A stretch of 64,000 nucleotides of DNA. Origin: Nitrospirales bacterium. GTDB taxonomy: Bacteria; Nitrospirota; Nitrospiria; Nitrospirales; UBA8639. The DNA lies in the NCBI GenBank assembly GCA_963422365.1, contig OY729426.1:1088001-1152000 (forward strand), read 5' to 3'. The position numbers and the translations under genes are program-made. This document shows positions 4,312 through 21,973 of this stretch, one piece after another. The notes beneath the pieces were generated by a model that was given only the letters and a program-made list of their open reading frames with translations, was not told the DNA's origin and searched no databases. Within the stretch, counting starts at the first letter, position 1. Every line of letters starts with the position of its first letter.

Positions 4312-6057
4312 TTAGGATTCAGGGGAGTCCGTTTCCAATTCCACCATCCGCAGTGTATACAGATGGCGGTACAGGCCGTCCTGTTGCATCAGTGCCGTAT
4401 GCGTGCCTTCTTCGACTATTCTGCCCTTGTTGAGAACAAAAATCCGGTTGGCTTCCTGAATGGTCGTGAAGCGGTGGGCAATGACCACGGTCGTCCGTCC
4501 TGCCATGAGTCGTTGTAACGCGTGCTGGACCAACATCTCGGATTCGGAATCCAGCGCCGAGGTCGCTTCATCCAAAATTAAAAGCCGAGGATTTTTGAGG
4601 ATGGCGCGGGCAATCGCAATGCGTTGCCGTTGCCCCCCCGAAAGATTGACGCCTTTTTCGCCGACCAATGTGGCGTACCCATCAGGCAGAACCGAAATAA
4701 AATCGTGGGCGTGAGCGGCCCGACTCGCTGCAACAAGGTCTTTTTCTGACGCGTCTTCTCGTCCATATCGAATATTTTCCAGGATTGTGTCGCCGAATAA
4801 GATGGTTTCTTGGGGCACGATAGCCACTTGTCGATACAGGCTGGTCAAATGCACGTGCCGAAGATCTTGATCGTCGATCGTGATGCACCCTTCGACAGGA
4901 TCATAAAACCGGTGTAACAGATTCGCGATTGTACTTTTCCCCGACCCCGTGGGACCGACTAACGCCACGATTTCCCCTGGATGCACGTCAAAGGAGAGAT
5001 CGGTGAGCACCGGGTGACGCGGATCATACGCAAAACTCACGTGTGAAAAGTTGATATGGCCTTGAATGTCTCGCAACGCTCTGGCTTGTGGGGCATCAGT
5101 CACCTCTGGCGTGGTGTCGAGTAACTCAAAGACGCGTTGCAGGGCACCCTGTCCCTCCTTCATTTTTGAAAAGATTCGTGCCGCTGATCCAAAAGGGCCG
5201 ATTAAAATTCCCGCAAACAACACGAAGGCTAAGAGGTCCCCAGGCGTCATGGCCCCATCGATGACTTGTGTGCCGCCGTACCAAAGGACCGCCCCGGCCA
5301 TCATAAACGTCAAGAGGGTGATGATGGGGATAAACACGGAGAGGATTTTGGCCCGGGAGAGCGTCCTGGCACCCAACGCGTGTACCGCTGTGCCGAATCG
5401 TCCTTCCTCTCGGGTCGTCTGGACAAAGGATTTCACAACTCGAATCCCCGAGATCACTTCTTCAATGAGCGTAGAAAGAGAGGCGGTGTGATCTTGTATC
5501 TGCGTAGAGAGGGACTTCAATCGCTGTCCAAACAGACGGGCCACGAAGACCAAGAGCGGAAGCAACAAGACAATAAGCAGACAGAGTTTCCAATTCATGA
5601 ATAACAAAAACCCGATTCCGCCGATCAGCGTCACCAGTTGTTTGGCGGAATCGATGGGGGTTTCGGTCACGAGGTTCTGAATCACCCCCACGTCGTTCAT
5701 GAGCCGCGAAAGAATTTCCCCCGTTCGTCGTTTTGCAAAAAAACTGAGGGACAGGGTGTGCAAATGACGAAACAGGTGTGTGCGAAAATCGGCGATGATC
5801 AGTTGAGAGAGACGGGTGGTCAGATAAGTCTGCCCCATGGTCAAGACACTTTGGATGATGGCGATTACCAGAAAAAGCAGAATCGTTTGCGTCATGCGTT
5901 CAACATGACGTTGAACCGTGATGAGGTCCCATAATGTGCCTCCGAGTTTCAGCAACGTCAGGTTGAGGGCTGCCACGCCCATGATCAAGGCTCCGGCCAA
6001 TATCATTTGAGAAAGATAGGGACGAAGAAACGGGAACAGGCGAGAGTATTGACTCAT
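4312..6057 (-). CDS. MsbA-like ABC exporter (permease plus ATPase)
   Basis: N-terminal TM domain, Walker A GPTGSGKS, LSGGQRQR signature, LILDEATSALD. Confidence 0.9.
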   Translation of the reverse strand: MSQYSRLFPFLRPYLSQMILAGALIMGVAALNLTLLKLGGTLWDLITVQRHVERMTQTILLFLVIAIIQSVLTMGQTYLTTRLSQLIIADFRTHLFRHLHTLSLSFFAKRRTGEILSRLMNDVGVIQNLVTETPIDSAKQLVTLIGGIGFLLFMNWKLCLLIVLLLPLLVFVARLFGQRLKSLSTQIQDHTASLSTLIEEVISGIRVVKSFVQTTREEGRFGTAVHALGARTLSRAKILSVFIPIITLLTFMMAGAVLWYGGTQVIDGAMTPGDLLAFVLFAGILIGPFGSAARIFSKMKEGQGALQRVFELLDTTPEVTDAPQARALRDIQGHINFSHVSFAYDPRHPVLTDLSFDVHPGEIVALVGPTGSGKSTIANLLHRFYDPVEGCITIDDQDLRHVHLTSLYRQVAIVPQETILFGDTILENIRYGREDASEKDLVAASRAAHAHDFISVLPDGYATLVGEKGVNLSGGQRQRIAIARAILKNPRLLILDEATSALDSESEMLVQHALQRLMAGRTTVVIAHRFTTIQEANRIFVLNKGRIVEEGTHTALMQQDGLYRHLYTLRMVELETDSPES

Positions 6058-6753: not shown

Positions 6754-7543
6754 GTCTTAATCCCTTCTTCATCAGGTCTTCACTTCAGACCTTGCGCCCC
6801 CGCCCTACGGGCGGGGGGGCGATAAATGCTGATTAATATTCCGCCTCACGCGCGGCGATCATCTCGCGGGCCTCATCCCATTTGGGTTGCCGGCGCGTGG
6901 CGGCACCCACGCGTTGGATGATGGCCTCGGCATTGCGTTTGCGTTCCAGAGTCCCCCGGCCGCCGCCGGCGATCTCAAGCGCAAACTCGCTGAGCGAGCG
7001 CCCCATCCGAGCGCTATGGCACCCCACGCAGGCGGTGACCAGATTGCTCGGATGAGTATTGCCGTCACCGCCGGTCACATCGTCGATGAGCAGGCCGGCA
7101 CACTCCTCATCCTCGATCACCTGCCCGCAGTATACGCAGGCCAGGTGATCCCGCAGGTAGATGCTAGTTATGGTGGTTATATCCATTGTTTCCCCCTTGC
7201 GCCCCCCGCCCTACGGTCTTAATCCCTTCTTCATCAGGTCTTCACTTCAGACGAAGAATAAAAATCGGGAACGGGCTCTCATCGACCGTCTTAATCCCTT
7301 CTTCATCAGGTCTTCACTTCAGACCCGGATCGGCCGTTTAATGATTAGCATAAAATTAAGAAGGTCTTAATCCCTTCTTCATCAGGTCTTCACTTCAGAC
7401 TCCGCCGAGAATCAGAGAGGGACGTGCACGGGATCGTCTTAATCCCTTCTTCATCAGGTCTTCACTTCAGACAATGGAGATTAAAACTTATGTGAGTACC
7501 GGGAGAGTCTTAATCCCTTCTTCATCAGGTCTTCACTTCAGAC
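6754..7543 (-). CRISPR. CRISPR array: 6 identical 37-bp repeats and 5 spacers (425, 35, 39, 35, 34 bp in + order)
   Basis: GTCTTAATCCCTTCTTCATCAGGTCTTCACTTCAGAC at 6754, 7216, 7288, 7364, 7436 and 7507. The minus-strand form ends ATTAAGAC (type III-like 8-nt 5' tag) and the leader side abuts cas2. Confidence 0.98.
6833..7186 (-). CDS. 117-aa HNH/McrA-fold Zn-binding protein encoded inside the 425-bp CRISPR spacer
   Basis: IYLRD..CVYCG...IDD....G...SNLVTACVGCH matches the HNH pattern RD..C.YCG...DH..P..GG...NLV.AC..CN. RBS AAGGGGGA lies 4 nt before the ATG; TAA stop inside the spacer. Confidence 0.8.
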   Translation of the reverse strand: MDITTITSIYLRDHLACVYCGQVIEDEECAGLLIDDVTGGDGNTHPSNLVTACVGCHSARMGRSLSEFALEIAGGGRGTLERKRNAEAIIQRVGAATRRQPKWDEAREMIAAREAEY

Positions 7544-7719
7544 TCCTTTCTCGAAAAAACCCTTTTCTTAGAATGGCTTGCAAAGGGGGTTGCAGGAAAT
7601 GTCCCAGGCTGCAAGAGGAACGTCACTATCATAACGCCGTGCATGGGGGACTCGATCAAACGAAGAAAAACGAAGTATACGATTTTTTTAATCAATCGTC
7701 AGCCTCATCCCCTAGGGAT
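7544..7719 (-). promoter_or_regulatory. CRISPR leader
   Basis: Non-coding, A/T-tract-rich segment between the terminal repeat and the cas2 stop; imperfect inverted repeat AACCCTTT..AAAGGGGGTT near the first repeat. Confidence 0.7.
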
Positions 7720-8043
7720 TCACGGTCGGTCGGGGGGATCTTGGATCAGTGCCAATCGACTCTGTCCGTTTTCGATCAGTAACGTGTTTGTGGCAAAAAA
7801 CTGTTGTCCCAATAGGGTCACGTCACCGGTGGCGGGCAACGGGTACGCCCGAACGTCATCGTGTTTTGGATCAATCATTGCCTCAAGCTCAGACAGGATG
7901 TGATTGAGTCGGGAGTGACTCAGCGGCGCGGCGAAGACGGAATACTGTACCCGACAAGCGTGCTGACACAGATATCTGGCGACCCGTCCCAGGCGCTTGG
8001 GGTCTGCAATATCGTACGCAACAAGATACAATCGCTGACTCAT
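7720..8043 (-). CDS. cas2: CRISPR-associated Cas2 (copy B)
   Basis: LYLVAYDIADPKRL...RVQYSVF...IDPKHDDVRAY. Confidence 0.93.
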   Translation of the reverse strand: MSQRLYLVAYDIADPKRLGRVARYLCQHACRVQYSVFAAPLSHSRLNHILSELEAMIDPKHDDVRAYPLPATGDVTLLGQQFFATNTLLIENGQSRLALIQDPPDRP

Positions 8044-8804
8044 ACGAAATCCACCAAAAAGCCTTGCAGACGGCTGGTCAGCCTGCGCGCAATTCGCGCC
8101 AACCGGTGACTGTGTTGCTCAAATAATGCCACAACGTCACGATCATTGATACGCTGGTGTGCCGGCCGCCGGCTTAACCATTCACTCAGGGGCAGTTGCA
8201 AGGACAGGGATAATAAATCAGCAGAATCAAGGGGTATGTTCAGCCGTTGCTCAAGATAGAGACTGCGTTCGGCACTCAGCCCTGCTTGCTGTAAGACCTC
8301 GTTGGCGAGATTGCTGCACAACCCATGCAAGCGTCGTTGCAGATCACTTCGCTGGCGCGTGTCAACGAATTGTTCCATATGGCGATCCAGCCTGGCACGG
8401 ATTTGCTTGAGCGAGAACTGGTCCGATTGCACGTTCAATGTGCGGCACAGTGCTCGTCGAGCACGGCTGGCAGCCGCAGCGACCCAGATCTGATAACGGT
8501 CAGGCCAGTCGGGGCGGTCCAGGAGATCACGCAGGTGGGTAAACAAGTCATCGTTCGCTCGGCTACGACCAAACACATGCGCCCTGATTGCGCCGTCATG
8601 CCGTAAGAAGGTGACGGTAATGCCACGCTCTGCGCAAGCAAGCAGAGTGGATGTCGCGCATTCCGGTGACCCGGAAATGACAAGACGGGACATACGGCGC
8701 AAGGGGACAAGCACGGCAGCCTGCCCTGATGCCGCGATACTCAAGGATGGGCCATCTAGGTTGATCTGCATCCCTTTCCGACCATGAATGTAACAGGGCT
8801 TCAT
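8040..8804 (-). CDS. Degenerate, probably catalytically dead Cas1 paralog
   Basis: The N-terminal region parallels the adjacent Cas1 (LDGPSL..VPLRRMSRLVI..LLACAERGITVTFL). The C-terminal half keeps AGL and FEQ but lacks the EG, GFYH and DxxE motifs. Confidence 0.75.
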   Translation of the reverse strand: MKPCYIHGRKGMQINLDGPSLSIAASGQAAVLVPLRRMSRLVISGSPECATSTLLACAERGITVTFLRHDGAIRAHVFGRSRANDDLFTHLRDLLDRPDWPDRYQIWVAAAASRARRALCRTLNVQSDQFSLKQIRARLDRHMEQFVDTRQRSDLQRRLHGLCSNLANEVLQQAGLSAERSLYLEQRLNIPLDSADLLSLSLQLPLSEWLSRRPAHQRINDRDVVALFEQHSHRLARIARRLTSRLQGFLVDFV

Positions 8805-9766
8805 GCGTCATCTGCCTCGGGTAACTCAGGGGCAGCATCCAGCAGGGCCCGTGCGATCTGATAGCTGCGAAGACGCAGATACCGTCGCCATGGCCCGGCA
8901 CATGCGTCATACTGTTCAAAAAACGTCCGGCGGCCGTTTTTGTTGAGCAGGCAGCTTTGTCCTTCGCGGCTGAAGTGGCCCGTGCTCAACAGACGTTGGC
9001 GAAATACATGCCAGACCCAGCGGTCGACCCGCGGCCGCAATGGTTCAATCACGTCACAGGCCAAAGATTGGCGGCCATACGCAGGCTCATGGTAAAACCC
9101 CAGCAGCGGATCGAGTCCTGCTCCATGACAGGCACGTACCGCTTCATGGTGTAGCAGGGTATACACCAGCGACAGGCAGGCGTTCACCGGGTCGCGCGGG
9201 GGACGACGATTCCGCCCGGTGAAGTCCAGACTGCCGGCAAACAGGTGCTGAAACCCGGCAAAGTACATGGCCGCTGCCGACCCCTCCAGACCACGCAACA
9301 CGTCCATGCTCACGGCCTTGTGCACGGAGGGCACGAGAGAAGCCAGCCCTGTTGTCGCGGTACTGAGCGGGTGACGAAGATCGAGTCGGCGTAACAGCGC
9401 GGACTGTAATAGTTTGTGCTGCGCGGTGATTTTCGCCTGCACCAGTTGCCGGCTCCAGTTCAGGCGTCGTTCGGTATCATGCCAGAGCTGATACTGGGCA
9501 AGCCGGCGTCGTGCATCATTATGACCCGGACACAAGAGTTGCAGACGTCGCTGACCTGCGCGCCCGTGCATGATGGTGACGCCTATGCCGCGCTGCCCCA
9601 GTGTTCCCAGCAGACGGCTGTCCAACGTCACCTGACTGTGGATGACGACCCGATCCAGCATTGTGAGCGGCACACTCTGTGGTCCTGCATCGGGTCGCCG
9701 GACCAGCAGTCGTTTCCCGTCCAGTTCGAGTTGCAAGTCTTTGCGATCAATGCATAACGTCAGCAT
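8801..9766 (-). CDS. cas1: CRISPR-associated integrase Cas1
   Basis: LRGLEGSAAAMYF, RNRRPPRDPVNACLS, GLDPLLGFYH, SLACDVIEPLRP; catalytic E/H/D motifs present. Confidence 0.96.
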   Translation of the reverse strand: MLTLCIDRKDLQLELDGKRLLVRRPDAGPQSVPLTMLDRVVIHSQVTLDSRLLGTLGQRGIGVTIMHGRAGQRRLQLLCPGHNDARRRLAQYQLWHDTERRLNWSRQLVQAKITAQHKLLQSALLRRLDLRHPLSTATTGLASLVPSVHKAVSMDVLRGLEGSAAAMYFAGFQHLFAGSLDFTGRNRRPPRDPVNACLSLVYTLLHHEAVRACHGAGLDPLLGFYHEPAYGRQSLACDVIEPLRPRVDRWVWHVFRQRLLSTGHFSREGQSCLLNKNGRRTFFEQYDACAGPWRRYLRLRSYQIARALLDAAPELPEADDA

Positions 9767-9771
9767 CGCGT

Positions 9772-10053
9772 TCAGCCGATGTAACAGTAGGATTGATCTT
9801 CGGGTGCGACACCCTTGCCCAAGGTCTTGATGTCATCCGCAGAGGCCAGCGGCAGGAGCAGAAACCGATCCTCATCCGGATCGATGATCCTCCCGATGGT
9901 CTCGACCAACTCCCGCCGCTCGGTGCCGGTCAGAAAACACTCGAAGACGGATTTCTGGCGGCCACAGGCAAACCCTTTCAATACATACAGGGCAGCCCGC
10001 AGGCGGCTGGTGTTGCTGATGTCATAGGCGGCAAGATAGAGTCGGCGTTTCAT
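9772..10053 (-). CDS. cas2: CRISPR-associated Cas2 (copy A)
   Basis: LYLAAYDIS..RL...QKSVFEC...IDPDEDR. Confidence 0.93.
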   Translation of the reverse strand: MKRRLYLAAYDISNTSRLRAALYVLKGFACGRQKSVFECFLTGTERRELVETIGRIIDPDEDRFLLLPLASADDIKTLGKGVAPEDQSYCYIG

Positions 10054-10093
10054 GCCGACAAGTTAAACATATGGAAGCGCACTTTGCCGGATT

Positions 10094-10138
10094 GGCAAGC
10101 TTGTCGTGGCTGGACAGTTGCTTTGAAGACTCTATAAT
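10094..10138 (+). promoter_or_regulatory. Sigma70-like promoter with upstream palindrome for the CARF-RelE gene
   Basis: GGCAAGCTTGTC 10094-10105, TGGACA 10111-10116, 16-nt spacer, TATAAT 10133-10138. Confidence 0.7.
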
Positions 10139-10175
10139 GAAAGCAGCATCTCACATTGAACGTGGAGGAAGTCAT

Positions 10176-11291
10176 ATGAAACCTAAGTTTGTGCTGTCAC
10201 TTTGCGGGACCAGTCTGCTCACGAATGGCGCAACAGGCTATGAACGGGCTCTTATCACTCGTCACGCCAACGTCAAAGACGAACAAGATATCAAGCATGA
10301 GGAACGCGAAAGCCTGCGAGCCAGGATTGACCACGTATACTCAACATTACAAGAAGCCGCTGAACACCAAATCACAGACATGTCGGCAGAGCTGAATGCG
10401 CTGTACAAACTGTATGACGGCCAACTCGGTCAGGCTGTCAACGACCAGCATTGGCTGCTGTGTACTGATACGTGGCTGGGGAAACAAACAGGGAAACTGA
10501 TACAAGAACAACTGGAACGTCGTGGGATTTCCTCCGTGCAAATTTGTCAGCCAACGGATCTGCGTACAGAGGAACTTCTCACCTTTCAAAGCGCGTTGTC
10601 AGATCTGGTGAAATGGTGTGACGAAACGATAGAACCCTGTCGGTCTAGCTGCCATATCGTTTTCAATCTCACGGGTGGCTTTAAAAGCATTCAGGGGTTT
10701 CTGCAAACGCTGGCGATGTTTTATGCTGATGAAGCCATCTACGTCTTTGAATCCGGCACGGAATTATTACGGATACCCAGATTGCCGATCAGGCTGGACA
10801 CGGACGACGTGGTACGTCAACACCTTCATGTCTTCAGGCGTTTGGCCAAGGGTCTCGGTCTTGATGAACAGTGCCAGCTTGATGATATTGATGCTATTCC
10901 AGAGACGTTATTGCTTCGCCTTGATAACGATGTCGATTTGTCGCTTTGGGGAGATTTGGTCTGGAAGCAGACGTATAAAGATGTTTATGGTGAAAAACTC
11001 TGGCCTTCTCCAAGCAAAAAAATCATCTACGGCGAAAAATTTGAGGCAAGTGTTGCATCACTTCCACCTGACCGGATCGGGCAGGTCAACAGTCGTCTGG
11101 ATCAGCTTGCCGTCCATCTTGAACGTGGAGGGCACAATTTGTCTTCCCTGGATTTCAAACCGCTGAAGGGCAGGATTAAAAACTATACTCATGAGCTTGA
11201 CGCCTGGGCCGACCAAGACGCCAAAAGGATGTATGGACGCCTTGAAAATGGTGTTTTTACAGTCGAGGTCCTTGATGAGGCTTTGCATTAA
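10176..11291 (+). CDS. cami1: APE2256-family CARF plus C-terminal RelE-like domain; Cami1-like cOA-activated mRNA interferase
   Basis: CGTSLL, SAELNAL, TDT..G, FNLTGGFK, YVFE..LP CARF motifs. The C-terminal LDFKPLKG..HELDAW..AKRMYG resembles RelE. GGAGG RBS before ATG 10176. Confidence 0.8.
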   Translation: MKPKFVLSLCGTSLLTNGATGYERALITRHANVKDEQDIKHEERESLRARIDHVYSTLQEAAEHQITDMSAELNALYKLYDGQLGQAVNDQHWLLCTDTWLGKQTGKLIQEQLERRGISSVQICQPTDLRTEELLTFQSALSDLVKWCDETIEPCRSSCHIVFNLTGGFKSIQGFLQTLAMFYADEAIYVFESGTELLRIPRLPIRLDTDDVVRQHLHVFRRLAKGLGLDEQCQLDDIDAIPETLLLRLDNDVDLSLWGDLVWKQTYKDVYGEKLWPSPSKKIIYGEKFEASVASLPPDRIGQVNSRLDQLAVHLERGGHNLSSLDFKPLKGRIKNYTHELDAWADQDAKRMYGRLENGVFTVEVLDEALH

Positions 11292-11416: not shown

Positions 11417-11725
11417 TTACGCCGAGTCTTTCTTGACGACTTTCGTGATCGTGTATTCTTCCAGTCGCGCACCGAATCTCCGCATGTCTTCCGTGCTTAA
11501 CTCCATGCCACGGTGAGTGGCAGGTATATCCATGGATAAGTGAAAATACCGTCCGCCGCGCTCGCACACGGCTGCTGCTACGTGAACGGGCAGTGTGCCA
11601 AGGACCTTATCACCGGGAACAATCGTTGAAAGATCGAGATGCTCGACCATCGCGTCGACTGAAAACCCTTCCTGTTCAGTCCAGGCTTTGGCGCCGGTGT
11701 GACGAGTGATGAAAATCGTGCCCAT
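11417..11725 (-). CDS. csx16: CRISPR-associated Csx16 (ring-nuclease candidate)
   Basis: FITRHTGA..W, HLD....GDKVLGTLPVHVAA.VC.RG.RYFHL......RG.EL. Confidence 0.9.
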   Translation of the reverse strand: MGTIFITRHTGAKAWTEQEGFSVDAMVEHLDLSTIVPGDKVLGTLPVHVAAAVCERGGRYFHLSMDIPATHRGMELSTEDMRRFGARLEEYTITKVVKKDSA

Positions 11726-12372: not shown

Positions 12373-13152
12373 TCATTGCAAAACGCATTCTTTCAATTTT
12401 TGGATGCTTGCTTTGCGCTCTTTGCCCTTTTTTCCTTTCAACATTCCTAAATGACGATAGATACTCTCCGCCAAATTACAGAGTTCAATTCTGGCTTCTT
12501 TGGGCCAGTTGGCTGCACTGGTTATCAGTGCAGCCAAACGACCCGGAACACGGCCTTGCTTCGTGAGCGCGTTATTGGCTTGATCTTGATCAAACCATAT
12601 TTTTAACTCTTCAATAGCGCGTTCTTCCTCGGTCATGGCGGCGAGCCGCTGTTGCTTTTCCCGTTCTGCCTGCTGTTCAGCTAATTTCGCCTGCTTTTGT
12701 GCTTCTTCTTGTTGCTTGCGCTGGGTTAGTTTCTCCTGCAAGGCTGTGATGCGACGCCACTGTGTTTCCAACCATTGTGGCTTTGAATGACCAATCTGTT
12801 CGATTAAATTCTCCAGTACGACAGGCGGTTTGTCCGGCGGGTCAATTTCAATCAACAACCAGCCGAACGGCACCATTTCCGATCGTGAATCTTGTGCGTC
12901 GGCGGCCAGCCATAAGGTACGAGGTTTCGGCTCATCTACGGACTTTTTATTGCCGACCATTATCTTAATGCTTCTGACACCATTTAAAGTAACCGCCTCA
13001 GCGCCACTATGCCGCCCCACACGCAATAACATCATTGCTTTGTTTGATTCCAGTAGTGGTGTGATGCTGGCCAGCAATCTGTGGATGCGCTGTTCCCAGT
13101 CAGGCTCGACATAACGTCTTTGTCCGATGATTGTTATTTCCTGCTCCAGCAA
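12373..13152 (-). pseudogene. 5'-truncated second Csm5-like RAMP (C-terminal part plus coiled-coil/helical extension)
   Basis: LLRVGRHSGAEAVTL G-loop and PFGW motif typical of Csm5 C-termini. The N-terminal RAMP motif is absent and there is an in-frame stop just upstream. Confidence 0.65.
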
Positions 13153-13305
13153 GGCTTTTTAATATATGTAGTTATATGTAGTCTATTTCAATCTGATCAT
13201 CAACCTTGACGAAACAACCATGTTTCCAACCTGAGACATTTCTCACATATCACATGCTGTCGTTGGTGCCGTTGAAAATTTACACCAAACTTAATCCGGC
13301 GTGCA

Positions 13306-14739
13306 TCAATTTTCTCCTTTATAAATTTGCAAGGCCTTTTTAATCGACTTGCCTGGTGGTGGGTTATCCCACCACCCCTTTTCCTGCCAGCGTGCCTGAA
13401 TGTCTGCTAACGCAGTCTGTTTTAGGTCACCGTCTTCAATTGCTTGCCAGGATTTTGCTAGTGGTTGGCCACGCAGGGCTTCATCAGCTGAAGCATGGTG
13501 CTGTTCTTGAATGGCCGCAATTTGTTCTTCCACCCATGGGCTGCGCACGACGTCTGTCGAACTGGTTTTTTGACTTGCGGCACGTATTTCTGTCTCATCC
13601 GACCAGGGTGACAATCTTATCCAGCCCAGTGGTAAACGGGGATTGCCTTGTACGGCTAATCTCCTGGTTTTTGGAAAATTTTCAGATTTTCCGAGACGAT
13701 AAAGTCCACGCATTTTTTCCTGCGTTTCTGCATCTTGCCAACCGCCCGTCATTCCCCGCCAACCACTGCCCCAAGCCAATCTTAGATAAGCGGCATTCTC
13801 TGTTTGTTGAATGGTTTCCCGTAATGTTTCGCATTGTTCGACGATTGTTTGCTGCTTGTAACGCTGAAAAAATTTTATTTCCTGTTCGAGGATATGTCGT
13901 GCGTGACCGTTGAGCTTTGCACAGAGTCCGGCAAAATCTGCCGGTAATAACTCAAGACTGTGCTGAGGCGCGTACCAACGATTTGGGTCTTTCAGCAGGA
14001 ATCGATCCCACTGCAGTGACATCGCTGCGATTGCGGTAGGTGCTAGAGTCTCGGCGTAAATACCGGTTGCGTCCTGCCACCTGTTCTCGTTTTTCCTGTT
14101 AGACATATTGCGCCATTTCGCGAACTGTCTGTCATTGGATCTGGTGATATTTAGCCAACGAACGTCGGCAAGACACAGATCACTGGTTTGGAAGTTAGCA
14201 TCACCTACGTGCAGAGCACGCAGCAGATCTTTGTTTGGATCAGAACCAAAGACATATTTTGTGATAGCAGTTGCTGCCATCTTAGGAGAACAGGTAGGCT
14301 TCTTCTGCGTATTATCCCACCGTGGAAGACGGCTTGCTATCCCACTCGGTCTGCTGTGCAGCCATGCGGCTAACAGTGCGGTGCGGATAGCGCCTTTTAT
14401 TGAACTGCCCGGCAGGTAGGGATGCAACATGGCATCTTTGATAAACTCCCTGAATTTCTCCGGCAGGGCCATTTTCCCCTGCAAATAGGGAAGTGGGTAG
14501 CCGTAGTATGTGCCTGCAAGCCTGACAGAATCACTCAGTTTGGGATTTGCTTGCAGTAGAGTATCAAGTGCTGTATGACCCGATGCAATGGCATTAAAAG
14601 TTCGGTTCTGATCGACAACAAAAACCTGTCCTCGTTGCTCCACGTAATCAAGTTCACGATATAATTCTTCCCCTGAGCCAACGTGTACCGGTGTCAATAT
14701 TTCAACGGCAAGTTGAATCGTTTCCGTTTGTCCTTTCAT
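13306..14739 (-). CDS. csm5: Type III-A Csm5 RAMP
   Basis: LTPVHVGSG, PYLPGSSIKGAIRT, LRLAWGSGW, PLGW; follows csm4. Confidence 0.92.
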   Translation of the reverse strand: MKGQTETIQLAVEILTPVHVGSGEELYRELDYVEQRGQVFVVDQNRTFNAIASGHTALDTLLQANPKLSDSVRLAGTYYGYPLPYLQGKMALPEKFREFIKDAMLHPYLPGSSIKGAIRTALLAAWLHSRPSGIASRLPRWDNTQKKPTCSPKMAATAITKYVFGSDPNKDLLRALHVGDANFQTSDLCLADVRWLNITRSNDRQFAKWRNMSNRKNENRWQDATGIYAETLAPTAIAAMSLQWDRFLLKDPNRWYAPQHSLELLPADFAGLCAKLNGHARHILEQEIKFFQRYKQQTIVEQCETLRETIQQTENAAYLRLAWGSGWRGMTGGWQDAETQEKMRGLYRLGKSENFPKTRRLAVQGNPRLPLGWIRLSPWSDETEIRAASQKTSSTDVVRSPWVEEQIAAIQEQHHASADEALRGQPLAKSWQAIEDGDLKQTALADIQARWQEKGWWDNPPPGKSIKKALQIYKGEN

Positions 14740-15728
14740 GAAACAACTCCCGTTCCTATGAAAAAGCCTCTGCCGTCCCGATAGATAGGATGAGGGGATG
14801 CTTTCCCTTCCGGCGTATTGGTAGGTGTAACCTCAACCACCCGGCCGGTGAGGGACCGACGGAACTGACTGCCTTCGGTAAACATGCGCAATCTCAAACG
14901 TCGCAAACCATGATGTGCAATCCATCCTCCTCGACTCATCAGGTTGTAGCTCGATCCTTCAAGCCAAGTCCCTGAAAAATCTGTTGGGGCAGGGCTGACG
15001 AGTGATAACGCAGTAAAAATGCCGTTATCAGTGGTCTTCAACTCAGGAAAATTGTCTGCTTTTTGCCATTCGAAAAAGCCGTTGCCATTGCTTCGGTCTG
15101 CGCCGATGCCACTGTCCCCCAATAAACTGAGCGCAGCCTCGAATCCTTTTCTATCATTATCGTTGCCAAAATGTGCCAGGAAGTATAAGCCCGATTCCGA
15201 GTGGAAGTGTACGCGCCCGAAGTTGAATAATTGCCCCTCCAGCGGGGCACCACTGGCGCGGTCAGTCGCTAGCCTTGGGCGTTCCTCCTGCGCCCATAGC
15301 GTTAATTTTTCTACCTGTTTGCAGATCGCCTTGGGCAAGGCCAGTGTCGATTGAACAATATCGATAGCATCAAGGTTTAGCTGCCAGCCATTTGTCGCGG
15401 TATCGTGCCACAATTCTGGCGCTATCCATTGAATCTTTTTAAGCTTCTTATAGCTGCGCAGGTCTTTATCGGGTAAGTCCGGTGCAGTGCTTCCAATAGG
15501 GCGAGGCAAAAAGTAAGTGTTCTGAAAATAGGGGAATGCCGAACTGAGTAGGAACGGTGGTGCCGCAGCCCGTTCAGTCGCAACATTCGGTTCCAACAGC
15601 GCCCACGCTGATAAAATCGCGGCGCTCAACGTATCCGAGTGAATAAATATCTCGGATTCATCATAGAAATTGTTGCCGCGATTATCGACGTGAAAAGGCG
15701 CTGTAAACTTGAGTTTGTAGCAGTCCAT
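14736..15728 (-). CDS. csm4: Type III-A Csm4 RAMP
   Basis: HSDTLSAA, LSSAFPY, LGDSGIGADRSNGNG, MFTEGS, HPIYRDG. Confidence 0.93.
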   Translation of the reverse strand: MDCYKLKFTAPFHVDNRGNNFYDESEIFIHSDTLSAAILSAWALLEPNVATERAAAPPFLLSSAFPYFQNTYFLPRPIGSTAPDLPDKDLRSYKKLKKIQWIAPELWHDTATNGWQLNLDAIDIVQSTLALPKAICKQVEKLTLWAQEERPRLATDRASGAPLEGQLFNFGRVHFHSESGLYFLAHFGNDNDRKGFEAALSLLGDSGIGADRSNGNGFFEWQKADNFPELKTTDNGIFTALSLVSPAPTDFSGTWLEGSSYNLMSRGGWIAHHGLRRLRLRMFTEGSQFRRSLTGRVVEVTPTNTPEGKASPHPIYRDGRGFFIGTGVVS

Positions 15729-15739
15729 AACAGTTTATT

Positions 15740-16522
15740 TCAGGCAACAGCTTCGGCTTCTGTAGCAGACGGCTTGAATTCATCTGGTATCTTGTAATCC
15801 GACAAATCCGCTTCCTTGTTGCCTGATTTGTATTGTTCCGCAGTCCGTTGGGTCAGTGAAGTCCTAGAAAATTTGACCTGCCCATAACCGCGCGAACCGT
15901 TACCACCGAGTGTATCCGCTTGAACCAGACGCAATCCTTCAAATAGCAGGTTGAGGAAATGCTTCTGATCATCGTCTTCAAGCAAAGTAAGAATGAATTC
16001 GAAATCAAATTCCGCTCCCGCGGGCACACGTTCGATCTGGCGTGGATTTGCGGCGGAGGTAATGCGATCAATCCAGACCTCGGTTTTGACTTCGGTCATC
16101 GGCATATCGGCATTGGGCGCTGAAAGAAGCTTAACTCGACTCGCTTTTGTCAACAGCGCATCACGAACAATCAAACGTGTTGGTTCTATTGAGTCTTCAG
16201 CCGCAACGCCAAATAGTTTGCCTAGCGACGTATCCGACTTCTTCCCCGCCAAGGCTTCCTTCTTCTCACGTATAGAGAAGCCCCCTTCGACGTTCTGGTT
16301 ATTTTCCTCATTTCCCCGAACCCGTTCGAGTAATGCCCTCATTTTGCCCCGTAATGACGAGCCTGGAATATACGGATCATTGGTTAGCGGGTTCCGCACA
16401 ACGACTGAATCGGCGCCACCGATAGCCATGCCGACGGAATTACCTCCGATATGCAACCCGGTTAAAGCTGTCAAATGACCTCGAACAAAAATTTTACTGC
16501 TTACTTTTTTGATGTCAGTCAT
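15740..16522 (-). CDS. csm3: Type III-A Csm3 backbone RNase
   Basis: TGLHIGG, IGGAD (catalytic Asp), PYIPGSSLRGKMR, KTEVWIDR..ANPRQIERVP, LGGNGSRGYG. Confidence 0.96.
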   Translation of the reverse strand: MTDIKKVSSKIFVRGHLTALTGLHIGGNSVGMAIGGADSVVVRNPLTNDPYIPGSSLRGKMRALLERVRGNEENNQNVEGGFSIREKKEALAGKKSDTSLGKLFGVAAEDSIEPTRLIVRDALLTKASRVKLLSAPNADMPMTEVKTEVWIDRITSAANPRQIERVPAGAEFDFEFILTLLEDDDQKHFLNLLFEGLRLVQADTLGGNGSRGYGQVKFSRTSLTQRTAEQYKSGNKEADLSDYKIPDEFKPSATEAEAVA

Positions 16523-16524
16523 GG

Positions 16525-16926
16525 CTATTTTCCTCCTGCTGCTTTATGGTAAGCGACTATTGCTTCAAAAAATTGGCAAAATCGCTGAAACGATGCTTCA
16601 TCATTGACAGCGTCAATCGCACTATCCATCACCTTTTTCAGCTCTTTCAAACCGTCACCATGCCGGCCTGCTGCATAAGCCAACCTGGTTTTGAGAAGAA
16701 GCACTTCGCGCCGTGTGCGACTTTGCCAGCCAGACATCTCCAGCTTTTTCATATTACCGTATGCATTGCGAATTTGGCTGGTAGTAACTTTTTTAGTTTG
16801 CAGAATTTCTCCAAACCTTTCTGCAAATTGAACCATTTGTTTAGCAGTATCGTCTTGAGCAATGTAGCTTTTAATCTCTTCAGGTGTTGGCATTGGGGTT
16901 TCACCGCTTGATCTATTTGTTGGCAT
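16525..16926 (-). CDS. csm2: Type III-A small subunit Csm2
   Basis: TTSQIRN, LLKTRLAYAAGR, FFEAIVAYHK; start may be 16893. Confidence 0.93.
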   Translation of the reverse strand: MPTNRSSGETPMPTPEEIKSYIAQDDTAKQMVQFAERFGEILQTKKVTTSQIRNAYGNMKKLEMSGWQSRTRREVLLLKTRLAYAAGRHGDGLKELKKVMDSAIDAVNDEASFQRFCQFFEAIVAYHKAAGGK

Positions 16927-19498
16927 CAGCAGATCTCCTCGTTAAAAATTCGGCCCACCGGGTGGGCAGTTCCAACCATTCAATCGCTGGTCGGATTGAT
17001 TCAGTCCGGCTTTCAGTAATAGTTGCGATCAAATTGTTCAAATCTTCCTCAATAGCAGGGGTGCGACGTGCCACGCGTTTCAGGTTGTAAACCAGACGCC
17101 AGCGCCATTGTTGCCAATGTAACAGTTCACGTATTTCATCTTTCTGTAATTGTCGTTTATCACTGAGCCGTCGGAACTCTTCAACTGCAAGCACGACCGA
17201 GCGTAATCTGTCGAGTATTGCCCGATTCCCGGTTTTTTCAATAATGGTTTCGATTTGCTTTTTTAACGTCAGAGCACGAGGATATTCTTCCCAGCCGATA
17301 GTTATGCCAAGCAGCGAGACAGCATCTTTTTCACGCTTGTTACGTTTCAGTACTTTTGCGCTTGACTCAGCTTCACTAGCCAAATCGGCGGCCCGTGATA
17401 TAGGGTATTTGCCGTCAACCATGATAAGGCCACCAGAAAGTGTAAACACAGGATTGCCTGCGCAATAGCGTTGAAATTCTTGCCGAATTTTATCAGCGAC
17501 ATCCGGCAGCTCATCCCAGGAACCGATGATAAACACATCGTCGCCCCCTGAATAAATAACTTGGCTACGCTTATAAGTTTTGAGCAGCTCCATAAGGTGA
17601 CCGGCAAAAAACAGGTGTAGCTGACGGGATAGAGTAGCCACCCTGGATAATGATCCCATTTCTTCTTCTGTGCCTGTTGCGCTTGGGAATTTGAGTCCAC
17701 GAATGAATATCTCACCCAAGTTATCGACATCCAGACGTAATACACCCATACGTCGAATACCCTTAGCGTTTTTATCAAAATCATCAAATTCCCATGGGGC
17801 TGCTTCTTCTTTGTCGCGGTCCCACCTACCAAGTAACCGAAAACCACTCGCATAACCATGCTGGTTGAATTTCGGATCAGTAATTTGATTGATACGTTCA
17901 TAATAGCTGGCAGCCAGCGAGCGTAACTCACTGAATTCAGGTAAACCATTTTGTTTTGAAACATGAATATGCCAATCCGTACCAGGTAAAGAAATACAAG
18001 CTAATTCCTTTTCCTTGATACTGTCCAAGTCACTTTTCCAAACCCAGAAAAAGGCTTCTGCGTCAGTCAGGCTTTGCCCCAACTTTTGTAAATTATTACA
18101 TTGCTTACAGATTGCTCCATCATCCGTCTGGCTGATTTCGGCATCTTTATCATCCCGGCTACAAACCCTGCACGCGGAGCCGGGAGCAAGTTCTTGCGGC
18201 GTAAAAAAACTATGGTCTTTTTCCAGTAATGGGCGGAAACGCTGCTGCCGGTCACGCATCAGGTTATCATTCGCAGCTTTCCAGCGTTTGCCCATGTTGC
18301 CACTGGCGAAATCTCCACCACATACCGGTGCGATACCGGTGCCGAGAAAAATGTCTCCTTGAAATTCTTTAATCAGAGCCTCATTTATTGCCGCCATCTC
18401 GTCTTTCAATGATTGCTCCAGACAGTCAGGTATGAGCAGGTAAAATTTGCCGCCAGAAGAATAAATGCGGGCAGTGGGGTAGAGTTTAAGTTTCCGTAAT
18501 AAATGTTCCGCAACACCGTCACATAACAGTTGTATATAAAGTGATCGTCCACGTAGACCCTTGGCAGCACCTTTACGGGTAATCTTGTAGATGAAATTCT
18601 GGATACCGGAAAAATCACCACAGACCAGACGCCATTTGTGGGTGGTTTTATCATTAAATGTATCAGGCTGATCAAGTGTGTCATGATGCTGATGATGTAG
18701 AAATAAACCTTCTGCAATAGCTGCCGTAACACGCAAATGGTCATATAACGATATGTCCGGGTGGATGACGTTCGTTGCCGCTGGAACGGTAGTCAAGAAA
18801 CGTTCCATCTGTGCCAGTAGCGTCATCATGAATGAACGCAAAGCGGCCGTTGTGAGTCGGTCATATTCGGGCACCTTTTCCATTGCATTCAGCAAACCAT
18901 CAGCCAGTTTCTGATAATCGTCCGATAAGTCCGTTGGACTGATCCAGACTGGATTTTCTCCAGCCTCTATCTTGGTCATAGGCGGATCAAATGCAGTTGT
19001 CGGCAATGAAAATATATCCCGGCCAGTTGTTAAGGGGTTAAGGCCTGCCCGAAACTCGGTAGGTTTGGAAACACCATCTAAATTGATGCGTTCAAGCATG
19101 GGTTCCAGAAGAGTACGGCGATGAATATTTCGTTGATAAAAATTTCCCTGTTCACGTTCGGCACTGGCGAAATGATCAGCTGCCTGAATAAGACGTTCCA
19201 TGTCCGTAGAGGCCACATGATGATGTGCGGCCATATTGATCCAGTTGGCTGCTGCTTGCGGATCATGTTGTTCTGATGGCTGTAAAATGGGAACGATACG
19301 ACAGAGCTCTTCACAAAAACGACGGGTATGTAATACGTGCAGGTGACTCCAGTAGCCACCACTCCGATGCCAGGGACAGTCCTGTTGCCTTTGGTCCTCA
19401 TTAGCACGATATTCACCAAGCCGATTTGCTCGCTCGAAAAATTTGCCTATGTCGTGCAATAAAGCGCCAAATACAATGTGGTCATGCGGTTCCATCAT
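16913..19498 (-). CDS. cas10: Cas10/Csm1 with intact HD nuclease and GGDD cyclase motifs
   Basis: LLHDIGKF, DISLYDH, GDFSGIQNFIY, LRGRS, Zn finger CRVC..CKQC, DVDNLG, YSGGDD. Start placed at 19498 because a -10 box lies at 19532-19537. Confidence 0.97.
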   Translation of the reverse strand: MMEPHDHIVFGALLHDIGKFFERANRLGEYRANEDQRQQDCPWHRSGGYWSHLHVLHTRRFCEELCRIVPILQPSEQHDPQAAANWINMAAHHHVASTDMERLIQAADHFASAEREQGNFYQRNIHRRTLLEPMLERINLDGVSKPTEFRAGLNPLTTGRDIFSLPTTAFDPPMTKIEAGENPVWISPTDLSDDYQKLADGLLNAMEKVPEYDRLTTAALRSFMMTLLAQMERFLTTVPAATNVIHPDISLYDHLRVTAAIAEGLFLHHQHHDTLDQPDTFNDKTTHKWRLVCGDFSGIQNFIYKITRKGAAKGLRGRSLYIQLLCDGVAEHLLRKLKLYPTARIYSSGGKFYLLIPDCLEQSLKDEMAAINEALIKEFQGDIFLGTGIAPVCGGDFASGNMGKRWKAANDNLMRDRQQRFRPLLEKDHSFFTPQELAPGSACRVCSRDDKDAEISQTDDGAICKQCNNLQKLGQSLTDAEAFFWVWKSDLDSIKEKELACISLPGTDWHIHVSKQNGLPEFSELRSLAASYYERINQITDPKFNQHGYASGFRLLGRWDRDKEEAAPWEFDDFDKNAKGIRRMGVLRLDVDNLGEIFIRGLKFPSATGTEEEMGSLSRVATLSRQLHLFFAGHLMELLKTYKRSQVIYSGGDDVFIIGSWDELPDVADKIRQEFQRYCAGNPVFTLSGGLIMVDGKYPISRAADLASEAESSAKVLKRNKREKDAVSLLGITIGWEEYPRALTLKKQIETIIEKTGNRAILDRLRSVVLAVEEFRRLSDKRQLQKDEIRELLHWQQWRWRLVYNLKRVARRTPAIEEDLNNLIATITESRTESIRPAIEWLELPTRWAEFLTRRSADANK

Positions 19499-19531
19499 TA
19501 GCGTAATAACCTTCTCTTGATCATCGTCTTG

Positions 19532-19579
19532 AGTGTAATCGATTTCCAGATGCAATTGTTCGACGGCAAGCTTGCCGTC
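19532..19579 (-). promoter_or_regulatory. Palindromic operator plus -10 box upstream of cas10
   Basis: Perfect 18-bp palindrome GACGGCAAGCTTGCCGTC 19562-19579; TACACT on the minus strand 27 nt from the 12-bp core. Confidence 0.7.
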
Positions 19580-19583
19580 TCCG

Positions 19584-20726
19584 TCATGTTTCCAGAAACC
19601 GTACCTGTTCTTTTTTCAGCGTTAACCCTTTCAACCGGCACCGCGACTCTGGAATCACGCCGATAGGACTGATCAGATAAGGGGTGGCCGGTTCCTTGCC
19701 CAGGCTTCTTTTAAGAAGCCCATTGATTTTGCTCGTTTTCTGATCCATAAAATCCTGGTCCATGCCACGTCTTAAACTGTCACGTGCATTCTCATAATCT
19801 GCGCTGTACTCACCGACAATGTGGACATATTCTTCGAGGTATTCTTCGCTGACGTTTTCCTGGGTCCAGTGTATGCCCGGAGTGCCTGCCAGTAGACGAC
19901 GGGCAAACCAGGCGTAAAAGGCGAAAAGACTGGGAGTAAGGGGCACAGGGTGGTCGCCGCAGTGAATGGTCTTGTTGTTGCTGTCGAGGATCAGTTTCGG
20001 CGGATTAACGTTGCGTTGTGTTCGGGAGACGGTTTCCGAATAACTCATGCTTTCGCCCAGTATGCTGCTATCCAGGTGCCCGCGCAGTCGCACAAAGGGG
20101 ATGTCTGCCAGCGTGATCTCGGCGTCACGGGTATGGATGGGGCGTTTGTTGTGGTCTCGCAGGACTTTCGGTTTGGGGGGCGGGTAGTAAAATTGTGGGT
20201 GTGACTCAAACGGTGGTGAGACCAGTACGTGGGACAGGCGATCCTGCTCGCGCCCGAACAGACTCATGGCGTAGCCCAGGTAGAACCCCATGGTCTTGCG
20301 GCCACCGGCGATAGAGGCGTGGATGATGGTCTGTGGATCAGCAGTCAGGCGTCGCACGATAGCGGTGATGGTATCGGCAGCGGTTTCATTGTCGGCAAGA
20401 CTGCGAATGTCGTCCAGTGGTTTCTTGTCATCCGCAGGGATCTGATGGATGGTCTCTCCGTCGAATCGGATGCCACCTGGATCGATGTCAAGATCAGCGC
20501 AGAGCCGATAAAAATGCTGTTCTTCGGGGTCGCTTTCGAGGAGCGTCAGGCGTACCCTGTCGGCTCCTTCGGCGGTGGTGATGATATGAATGGCCGTCGG
20601 GATGAATGGATCGTCTCGCGTGGCCAGTGCATAGAAGGTTTCGGTAATCACCTGTGGTGATAAACCGGCGGCACACAGCAAGATGCGTTGTGAGCAACCG
20701 ATGGGTGAGCGTGCCGCGTTTGTCAC
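19584..20726 (-). CDS. NE0113-family CARF protein with C-terminal HTH-like extension
   Basis: GLSPQVITET, DDIR, SIAGGRKTMG, SLFGREQDRLSHVLV, FESHPQFYYP. The track ORF starts at 20867; the true start is probably the GTG near 20726. Confidence 0.85.
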   Translation of the reverse strand: MTNAARSPIGCSQRILLCAAGLSPQVITETFYALATRDDPFIPTAIHIITTAEGADRVRLTLLESDPEEQHFYRLCADLDIDPGGIRFDGETIHQIPADDKKPLDDIRSLADNETAADTITAIVRRLTADPQTIIHASIAGGRKTMGFYLGYAMSLFGREQDRLSHVLVSPPFESHPQFYYPPPKPKVLRDHNKRPIHTRDAEITLADIPFVRLRGHLDSSILGESMSYSETVSRTQRNVNPPKLILDSNNKTIHCGDHPVPLTPSLFAFYAWFARRLLAGTPGIHWTQENVSEEYLEEYVHIVGEYSADYENARDSLRRGMDQDFMDQKTSKINGLLKRSLGKEPATPYLISPIGVIPESRCRLKGLTLKKEQVRFLET

Positions 20727-20873
20727 TGGATACGCCTGTCTCGGATTTGATCCAGAATATCTTTCGGTACAAGGCTGGATACGGGATGACGGCTTTTCAG
20801 TGCAGGCCTCGTTCCGGTGTCGGTGGATTGCATGACGGTTTCCATGAACGATGGTCGTTCTAGGCAAGCCCTG

Positions 20874-21854
20874 TTAATCGACGCTGATGATTGCATACTT
20901 GCCCAGCCCCATGCTGGTGTTTTTGCCCGCGTGAGTCCATTGGCCGAGCCAGATGTAGTGCCAGAAAGGCACGAGTGCGTTGCTTCCGGAACAGCCGCCG
21001 GCGCTGACCTCGAACGTCACCGTGCCCAACAGTCCGCCAAGCTGCATCAGGCTGTCCTGACGGCTGGAATAGCGGGTCCAGTCATGCCAGCGCAGTTCAT
21101 GACGTGCCACGGGTATCGCTTCAGCTGCCCGGGTCAGCGCGGCAAAGTCGGTTTCCAGCGGCGTGTCGGTGTGAAACGCGGTGAGCAGGGAGAGACGCCG
21201 CAATAACGTCGAAAAGAGGGTCTTGAACGTCAACCCGTTCGGCGTGATAAGGTGATCGCGGGCTTTCACGCGCAAGGGCGTGAGGAACTCGATTTTCAAT
21301 TGAGCCGGACAATCCGGCGGATTGCGACACTCCGGAGGTTGCGGCTGGAGATTTCCTCCTGGCCGGTAGATTGACAACCATGCATCCTGCACGTGCTGTT
21401 GAACCTCAAGTAACGTGAGTGTTCCGCGTTGTTTGCCAATACCTCGTTGGGCGGCTTGGTCAAGCGCGTGAATGATATAGGGCAGATGACGATTCCCACG
21501 TCCGAACAGCGTCATCTCCAAGCTGTGCTCGGTCTCCGCCGCCAGGGGACCGTGCATCGTGTCGCCCGGATTCAGGACGAACGGGTGTGGCGCGGCGTTG
21601 TATTTGCGCAGTTTGCCGACGCCTGGATCCGGCGGTGTCTCAAAAATATAGGGGTAGATACAACTGCGATACAACAGGCAGGGTTCACAGTGCGGTTCGC
21701 GGGTCACGCAGACCAGTCTTTTGAGGCTGTTGCCGAAGGCGCCGCGCCAAGCGGAACCGGAATAGTCCGGCAGGCGCATGGAGCCGGCTGTTCGAAACCT
21801 GAACCGATAGTGCGCCAAGGGTAATGATGGTTCGCTGAATGATGCTGTATTCAT
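20874..21854 (-). CDS. cas6: CRISPR pre-crRNA processing endoribonuclease Cas6
   Basis: GSAWRGAFG, Cys cluster C..C.L...C.Y, PHPF, TPLR, DWTRYSSRQ, G-rich loop HAGKNTSMGLG. Confidence 0.92.
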   Translation of the reverse strand: MNTASFSEPSLPLAHYRFRFRTAGSMRLPDYSGSAWRGAFGNSLKRLVCVTREPHCEPCLLYRSCIYPYIFETPPDPGVGKLRKYNAAPHPFVLNPGDTMHGPLAAETEHSLEMTLFGRGNRHLPYIIHALDQAAQRGIGKQRGTLTLLEVQQHVQDAWLSIYRPGGNLQPQPPECRNPPDCPAQLKIEFLTPLRVKARDHLITPNGLTFKTLFSTLLRRLSLLTAFHTDTPLETDFAALTRAAEAIPVARHELRWHDWTRYSSRQDSLMQLGGLLGTVTFEVSAGGCSGSNALVPFWHYIWLGQWTHAGKNTSMGLGKYAIISVD

Positions 21855-21973
21855 AGAAGTTTCCCGTTTGTTGCAACAACGTAACGGGTTACCCAAAGTT
21901 GTTCAACGCGAAAATTCTATATGTTACGATAGGTTATGGAGATAATGTGTTGAACCCCTTGCTTCAGGCGTTT

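Follow-up and report, generated by a model that had tools for sequence, protein, structure and literature searches.

Solved structures of CRISPR integrases are Cas1(4)-Cas2(2) hexamers, in which each Cas1 dimer has one catalytic and one non-catalytic member (PMC8102632, PMC12259127). In the type III-D system of Vibrio vulnificus YJ016, which encodes RT-Cas1 (RT, reverse transcriptase), Cas2A and Cas2B, both Cas2 proteins were reported to be required and a Cas2A/Cas2B heterodimer was proposed; the same report places the two-Cas2 arrangement in RT-CRISPR clades 6 and 13 (PMC6821258). Here we analyzed a type III-A locus in a 64,000-nucleotide stretch of the genome of a Nitrospirales bacterium (the window; contig OY729426.1, positions 1,088,001 to 1,152,000), in which the adaptation genes are arranged as cas2A, cas1, a gene for a 254-aa Cas1-like protein, and cas2B. 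An earlier note, made from the letters of the window alone, had proposed that these proteins form an obligate heteromeric, asymmetric integrase, whose relaxed ruler may be connected with the giant spacer (425 bp) of the adjacent array. By our comparisons and structure model, the 254-aa product is a paralog of Cas1, conserved across genomes, that has the full Cas1 fold and a deleted active site. Its likely role, to which we assign a probability of about 0.55, is that of the non-catalytic Cas1 position in a four-protein integrase (Cas1, dead Cas1, Cas2A and Cas2B), where it would be replaceable by Cas1.

All four adaptation open reading frames (ORFs) lie on the minus strand with the boundaries proposed in the earlier note. 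The tight coupling of the four genes holds, with ATGA overlaps joining cas1 to the paralog gene (8801-8804) and the paralog gene to cas2B (8040-8043), and a gap of 5 bp without overlap between cas2A and cas1. The two Cas2 proteins are divergent as described, with 37% identity across 81 aa, and belong to two separate families. In an alignment of 47 Cas2A orthologs, Y10 and D11 are invariant and the C-terminal tail P.DP..FY.G is conserved.

A BLAST comparison of the paralog with the neighboring 321-aa Cas1 aligned only the first 67 residues, and the match of the paralog to Pfam Cas_Cas1 is confined to residues 10-155 (E = 1e-9). Alignment of the two families with hhalign extended from end to end (probability 98.9), with a gap of ~34 residues in the paralog where Cas1 has the NRRPP loop and the helix bearing E161. 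The positions matching H226 and E241 carry replacements. In the neighboring Cas1, E161, H226, D238 and E241 are invariant in 46/46 orthologs, and the G.EG motif is present in all 46, versus 8 of 149 paralogs. The metal-binding set of an active integrase (Glu, His and Asp/Glu) is complete in the 321-aa protein and broken up in the paralog. The structure model of the paralog (pLDDT, predicted local distance difference test, 94) has an N-terminal beta domain and a C-terminal helical domain in the Cas1 topology. Its best match was 7cr6_A (Z 19.3, root-mean-square deviation 3.2, 248 of 254 residues aligned), and Cas1 or casposase chains took all of the 12 top places, whereas the best-scoring unrelated fold reached Z 5.2. 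The beta domain is intact in the model, and the helical domain is complete except for the Glu helix and the NRRPP loop. The reading of this ORF as open, Cas1-like and devoid of catalytic motifs is thus borne out. The His motif is kept in 9 of 28 paralogs of the window's phylum (Nitrospirota), which suggests that the active site decayed stepwise. Paralogs from distant families of this phylum (L179-L199) often have the His motif and no Glu helix.

To describe the occurrence of the paralog, homologs were collected by a word-index search, which returned 61 proteins including the query, and by an exhaustive search of a 50%-identity library, which returned 206 representatives at E <= 1e-10. Most are 240-285 aa long, a length that is constant over two phyla, and a few have the length of an ordinary Cas1. 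The gene was present in 26 of 401 sampled Gammaproteobacteria, and among 115 genomes from the family of the window, 6 gave a full-length match; the plasmid collection contained no match. A scan of metagenomes yielded 8 short loci with the paralog and 9 weak cross-hits, for the most part ordinary cas1. The ratio of nonsynonymous to synonymous substitution rates (dN/dS) was 0.11-0.30 in seven of nine pairs of paralog genes, one of the nine including a split copy, and the remaining two pairs were saturated. In the first 51 paralog loci examined, some of them near-duplicates, cas1 was upstream and cas2B downstream of the paralog gene in all 51, and cas2A was present in 48, two of the three exceptions being contig ends. 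Many of these loci have the 4-bp overlap between cas1 and the paralog gene. The paralog evolves faster than cas1 (tree length 39 versus 22), is split or frameshifted in 3 of the 51 loci, and in L004 lacks 20 aa through an in-frame deletion, as might be expected of a decaying cas1 pseudogene. This explanation is refuted by selection and spread, as seen in the dN/dS values, the constant length in two phyla, the 206 representatives and the confident fold. An apparent fusion of the paralog to cas2B in L017 was rejected, owing to a frameshift near the 3′ end of the paralog gene.

The association was also tested in the reverse direction. Among 400 Gammaproteobacteria genomes, Cas1 of the paralog-linked clade occurred at 28 places and had the paralog after it at 26, the exceptions being a 24-aa paralog remnant (G297) and a contig end. 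In the window's phylum, 40 matching genomes returned 30 loci, and in 28 of these the paralog followed Cas1 of this clade. The distance matrix of cas1 correlates with that of the paralog (rho 0.72, 41 loci), which shared descent alone could produce. The pairwise tree correlations with cas2A (rho 0.55) and cas2B (rho 0.59) do not single out a pairing of Cas2B with the paralog. As judged from these comparisons, the paralog is under purifying selection and tied to one Cas1 clade and two Cas2 families, and the conservation across genomes presupposed by the earlier note is supported by both dN/dS and the fixed gene order.

A natural loss of the paralog bears on whether it is essential. A search for the repeat within the window's family revealed arrays in two genomes, G014 and G027, that had no match to the paralog. 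Both belong to the same genus as the window and are single-contig genomes of 99-100% completeness, and the paralog was not found elsewhere in either, genome-wide. Both carry cas2A-cas1-cas2B with a common deletion, which leaves ~40 nt resembling both ends of the paralog gene. The four-gene module of the window and these three-gene modules share ~84% identity over cas2A-cas1, and have nearly the same repeat. The modules of G014 and G027 are 90% identical to each other, keep all the Cas1 catalytic residues, and have dN/dS values of 0.10 for cas2A, 0.25 for cas1 and 0.46 for cas2B. In their arrays, uniform repeats separate spacers of 34-37 nt, 13 in one genome and 32 in the other, and the two genomes have no spacer in common. 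The simplest reading is that acquisition likely continued after the loss. Because the arrays share no spacer, and cas1 and cas2 are intact and under selection, the paralog is likely not essential, and the term obligate in the earlier note is not supported. The heteromeric part of that proposal is still plausible, with a conserved and selected dead Cas1 accompanying one Cas1 clade and two Cas2 families. Taken with the spacer data below, the sequence comparisons suggest that the paralog is probably dispensable, being neither essential nor the cause of the giant spacer.

We propose that an ancient duplication took place in a type III Cas1 lineage already using two Cas2 genes, with one duplicate keeping catalysis and the other keeping the N-terminal domain. 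The N-terminal domain of Cas1 mediates Cas1 dimerization and contact with Cas2. Each arm of the integrase would then be a heterodimer of Cas1 and dead Cas1 on a Cas2A/Cas2B core. We infer this complex because known integrases pair a catalytic with a non-catalytic Cas1, and because V. vulnificus needs both Cas2 proteins. The paralog would act as a specialized scaffold for which ordinary Cas1 can substitute, and may improve efficiency or fidelity while being non-essential. Several observations weigh against this proposal. Other Cas1 genes in G014 and G027 could act in trans. The dN/dS values after the loss (cas1 0.25, cas2B 0.46) are above those of most intact pairs, so that selection on the three-gene module may have relaxed in part. 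A search of proteins of 500-2000 aa turned up no fusion between the paralog and a partner, a weak negative, and the paralog joins the tree by a long branch (support 89), with an approximate branch point.

In addition, the clean loss in one lineage and the 24-aa remnant in G297 would fit a regulator equally well. As a damper, the paralog would act by poisoning or diluting Cas1 dimers, or by competing for Cas2, and would hold down acquisition as well as self-targeting in type III systems with toxic CARF effectors. Paralog loci do carry effectors of the Csm6, Card1 and CARF-RelE types, the domain on the dimerization side is kept while catalysis is gone, and the arrays apparently remain active after the loss. 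However, the 4-bp overlap with cas1 in many loci suggests fixed co-translation over separate control, the arrays of paralog loci are long, reaching 131 repeats, and the whole helical domain is kept and folds in the model. On balance we regard a damper as unlikely, though the strongest of the alternatives.

To investigate whether the paralog relaxes spacer length, spacers of up to 60 nt were counted in the 34 of the 51 paralog loci that have an array. The 823 spacers had a median of 34 nt and a standard deviation (SD) of 2.0, and 813 of them were 30-39 nt long. Three sister arrays without the paralog were similar (median 33, SD 1.7, 61 spacers), and other paralog arrays had an SD as low as 0.63. 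The idea that a relaxed ruler explains the giant spacer is not supported by these lengths. In the closest clade, four arrays with the paralog had SDs of 1.6-1.9, against 0.7-0.8 for two arrays that lack it. The narrower spread without the paralog is a weak hint in favor of the earlier note; a pooled Levene test of the spread (p = 6e-4) was rejected as proof, because one deletion event lies behind it. Six gaps of 61-1600 nt, the length at which counting stopped, occur in the 34 paralog arrays. Two are insertions, one of an IS1595-family transposase gene and one resembling an insertion sequence (IS), and one consists of 517 nt of non-coding sequence that precedes a degenerate last repeat. The remaining three, found in the window, L004 and L087 and thus in a single genus, are distal spacers that bear genes and have perfect repeats on both sides. 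Apart from the insertion element, the other 31 paralog arrays have no gene-bearing giant insert among gaps of this size.

The array of the window has spacers of 34, 35, 39, 35 and 425 nt, counted from the leader. The giant spacer has an identical 19-20-nt sequence at both ends (6791-6810 and 7196-7215), a direct repeat that forms half of a GC hairpin, and these terminal repeats flank a ribosome-binding site and a single HNH-like ORF. It was recovered as a repeat-to-repeat contig, at a depth like that of its flanks, in three sequencing runs (X1, X2 and X4), which are from one study and may include the source sample. An assembly artefact was therefore rejected, with a fourth run partly covering the spacer. 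Searches for its source in viral contigs gave no exact match to the hairpin and no relative of the HNH ORF, and no second copy was found in its own genome. The giant spacer resembles a single unit from the gene array of a mobile element, in which hairpins recur between the genes. Two origins would fit its sequence: a circular unit that integrated into a short spacer, or a fragment, annealed at its ends, that was captured.

Leader-distal gene-sized inserts were found with this repeat family in five of the six assessable genomes of the genus, and not in G027. The five inserts are unrelated in sequence to one another. Perfect repeats flank three of them, all in paralog-bearing genomes (425, 1007 and 1073 bp), and the other two are the 874-bp insert of the paralog-free G014 and the ~650-bp insert of an orphan array in G029. 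Gene-sized inserts occur in paralog-free arrays of the genus, and among the paralog arrays only those of this genus have one that is not an insertion element. They thus go with the host genus and not with the module, and a separate process of the host lineage is the most likely origin of the giant spacer. In L004, a CARF gene (PADLOC CARF7-DUF2103, E = 8e-130; positions 13109-19574 for the whole region) begins 1 nt past a perfect repeat and terminates within a partial repeat, and eight more degenerate repeats flank small downstream gene cassettes, so that the array tail has the appearance of a cassette graveyard.

An integrase both obligate and asymmetric, whose relaxed ruler yielded the 425-bp spacer, would account for the near-universal linkage of the paralog, for the wider spacer spread with the paralog in the closest clade, and for the gene-sized distal spacers in 3/3 paralog loci of the genus that have an assembled array. 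It is very unlikely in view of the natural deletion with acquisition apparently continuing, the regular spacers both with and without the paralog, the origin of the long gaps in the other 31 paralog arrays, and the inserts in paralog-free arrays. Slightly less improbable, though still doubtful, is an integrase with unlike arms, one of Cas2A and active Cas1 and the other of Cas2B and dead Cas1. Such an enzyme could fix orientation without a PAM (protospacer adjacent motif) or Cas4, let spacer length vary by a few more bases, and now and then, in this genus, admit a whole gene as the founding spacer; a fragment with 20-nt terminal repeats might anneal into a short prespacer-like duplex and be captured in this way. 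We retain it because all three paralog arrays of the genus have a gene-sized spacer between perfect repeats, and because the spread narrows and cas2B relaxes most after the loss of the paralog.

To examine the origin of the module, a tree of 47 active Cas1 proteins, including 20 of the paralog-linked ones, was constructed. The paralog-linked Cas1 proteins form one clade (support 98/93), and their sister group consists of five cas2A-cas2B-cas1 loci without the paralog (joint support 100/98), three of which have an array of the same repeat family as the paralog loci. It is therefore probable that the pair of Cas2 genes is older than the paralog or arose along with it. Profiles of the paralog scored highest against the neighboring clade, with the sister clade second and type I-like Cas1 third, and the paralogs form one long branch joined to the two-Cas2 lineages. 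These relationships suggest that the dead Cas1 is an old duplicate inside a two-Cas2 type III Cas1 lineage.

Two of the sister loci (L126 and L131) contain a stand-alone RT. In the window, an RT motif search of positions 1-22000 was negative, and neither RT nor Cas4 families were found among 15 locus proteins scanned with Pfam and NCBIfam, in line with the earlier note. No RT motif was found in any paralog locus, nor were RT or Cas4 families found in the 71 scanned of 124 unassigned neighboring ORFs. The paralog could then be an accessory DNA-binding factor outside the hexamer, which would capture prespacers or bind the leader-repeat in place of Cas4, RT or IHF, a role that the many conserved Arg columns of the family would suit. 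However, conservation of the paralog peaks at residues 1-80 (mean 0.56, versus 0.30-0.44 elsewhere), in the N-terminal beta domain rather than on the helical DNA-binding side, and three of the five sister loci have neither an RT motif nor the paralog. We consider such a factor improbable, more so than a damper.

The coordinates of the features are listed in Table 1. The locus is assigned to type III-A by matches above the NCBIfam cut-off for Csm1, Csm2, Csm3, Csm4 and Csm5, and a Pfam match for Cas6. The effector operon, followed by csx16 and the CARF-RelE type gene, lies upstream of the adaptation genes, and the array lies downstream, an array downstream of cas2B in the same orientation being a feature of many homologous loci. 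A 259-aa ORF at 12373-13152 (minus strand) matched no Pfam, NCBIfam or PADLOC family; its homologs are the C-terminal part of 540-680-aa ORFs in L003, L005, L018 and L019, three of which also match Csm5 weakly. The same genome (G000, contig C1) has two further CRISPR loci with their own cas1-cas2, at ~769-771 kb (L001) and ~873-884 kb (L002), whose arrays of 26 and 100 repeats have spacers of 33-38 nt and no long gaps, and a broken cas1 is located near 884 kb.

Table 1. Features of the window and of the loci compared with it (window coordinates unless a locus is named; sizes in brackets).
Feature	Position	Strand	Basis or remark
Type III-A effector operon: cas6, NE0113-family CARF gene, cas10, csm2, csm3, csm4, csm5	13306..21896	-	Pfam/NCBIfam
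csx16	11417..11725	-	TIGR02620, E 1e-31
CARF-RelE type ancillary gene	10071..11291	+ (opposite strand)	PADLOC CARF7--CARF_RelE, E 3e-125
cas2A (93 aa), first Cas2 family	9772..10053	-	Pfam CRISPR_Cas2, E 3e-12
cas1 (321 aa), catalytic residues E161, H226, D238, E241 intact	8801..9766	-	Pfam Cas_Cas1, E 2e-76, full-length
Predicted dead Cas1 paralog (254 aa)	8040..8804	-	hhalign, structure model, PADLOC, dN/dS
cas2B (107 aa), second Cas2 family	7720..8043	-	Pfam CRISPR_Cas2, E 3e-18; 50-ortholog alignment
Putative leader	7544..7719	-	inferred from position only, cas2B to first repeat
CRISPR array, 6 identical 37-nt repeats, ...GAAGAAGGGATTAAGAC family	6754..7543	-	
Leader-distal giant spacer (425 bp)	6791..7215	unassigned	64% GC, genome 53%
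HNH-like ORF in giant spacer (117 aa)	6833..7186	-	PHROG HNH, best E 5e-8; Pfam HNH, E 0.0025, below cut-off
Same-genus distal insert (1007 bp)	L004 12102-13108		paralog locus
Same-genus distal insert (1073 bp)	L087 7659-8732		paralog locus
Same-genus distal insert (874 bp)	L164 ~16320-17190		without paralog
Same-genus distal insert (~650 bp)	L166 ~4530-5220		without paralog
Long gap	L008 ~12815-13920		IS1595-family transposase
Long gap	L077 ~4630-5760		IS-like insertion within repeat (family provisional)
Long gap (517 nt)	one paralog array		non-coding, before degenerate last repeat
Sister loci cas2A-cas2B-cas1	L125, L126, L127, L129, L131		without paralog

To our knowledge, every characterized CRISPR integrase uses a single protein for both kinds of Cas1 position, catalytic and non-catalytic. 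Separate genes for the two Cas1 roles and for two Cas2 proteins would allow each of the six positions to be mutated singly, and integration asymmetry, including the leader-side arm and orientation in PAM-free type III systems, would become directly testable. The four-gene module of the window and the three-gene modules of G027 and G014 constitute a natural knockout pair, ready for experimental comparison, and the paralog family is common in the Gammaproteobacteria sampled. What is new here is the natural knockout lineage and the survey of spacer lengths, which remove the obligate role and the relaxed ruler.

The paralog has been catalogued, and is apparently an unstudied variant of the Cas1-Cas2 integrase. 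In PADLOC-DB v2, PDLC01185 ranks first of its 10 matches (E = 4e-14), a model described as "Cas1, diverged variant, second in the loci"; the match spans paralog residues 5-206 on a model of 246 positions, and this model also finds the paralog gene in three of four other genomes tested. The paralog resembles PDLC01185 in length class and in position after cas1, as in all 51 loci. The score is modest, 51 bits versus 45 for the ordinary Cas1c model, suggesting that the model was built from distant members, and the entry is a label only, which describes neither function nor complex. The family may be among the 69 clusters described as diverged variants of known Cas proteins (bioRxiv 10.1101/270033). 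Full-text literature searches, with subscription journals outside their coverage, returned no study of a dead second Cas1; the "inactivated Cas1" of PMC3150331 was rejected as a precedent, as the passage in question concerns Cas10.

Compared with the V. vulnificus module, the window operon likewise has two different cas2 genes in a type III adaptation operon, but it lacks the RT found at cas1 there and has the extra dead Cas1. The likeness is one of arrangement, and the shared names Cas2A and Cas2B do not imply orthology. With the canonical Cas1(4)-Cas2(2) integrases, the window module shares the Cas1 fold, in both of its copies, one intact active site, and spacers of 30-39 nt. Those integrases consist of two protein types, whereas the window module would consist of four, with a separate non-catalytic Cas1 and two Cas2 proteins.

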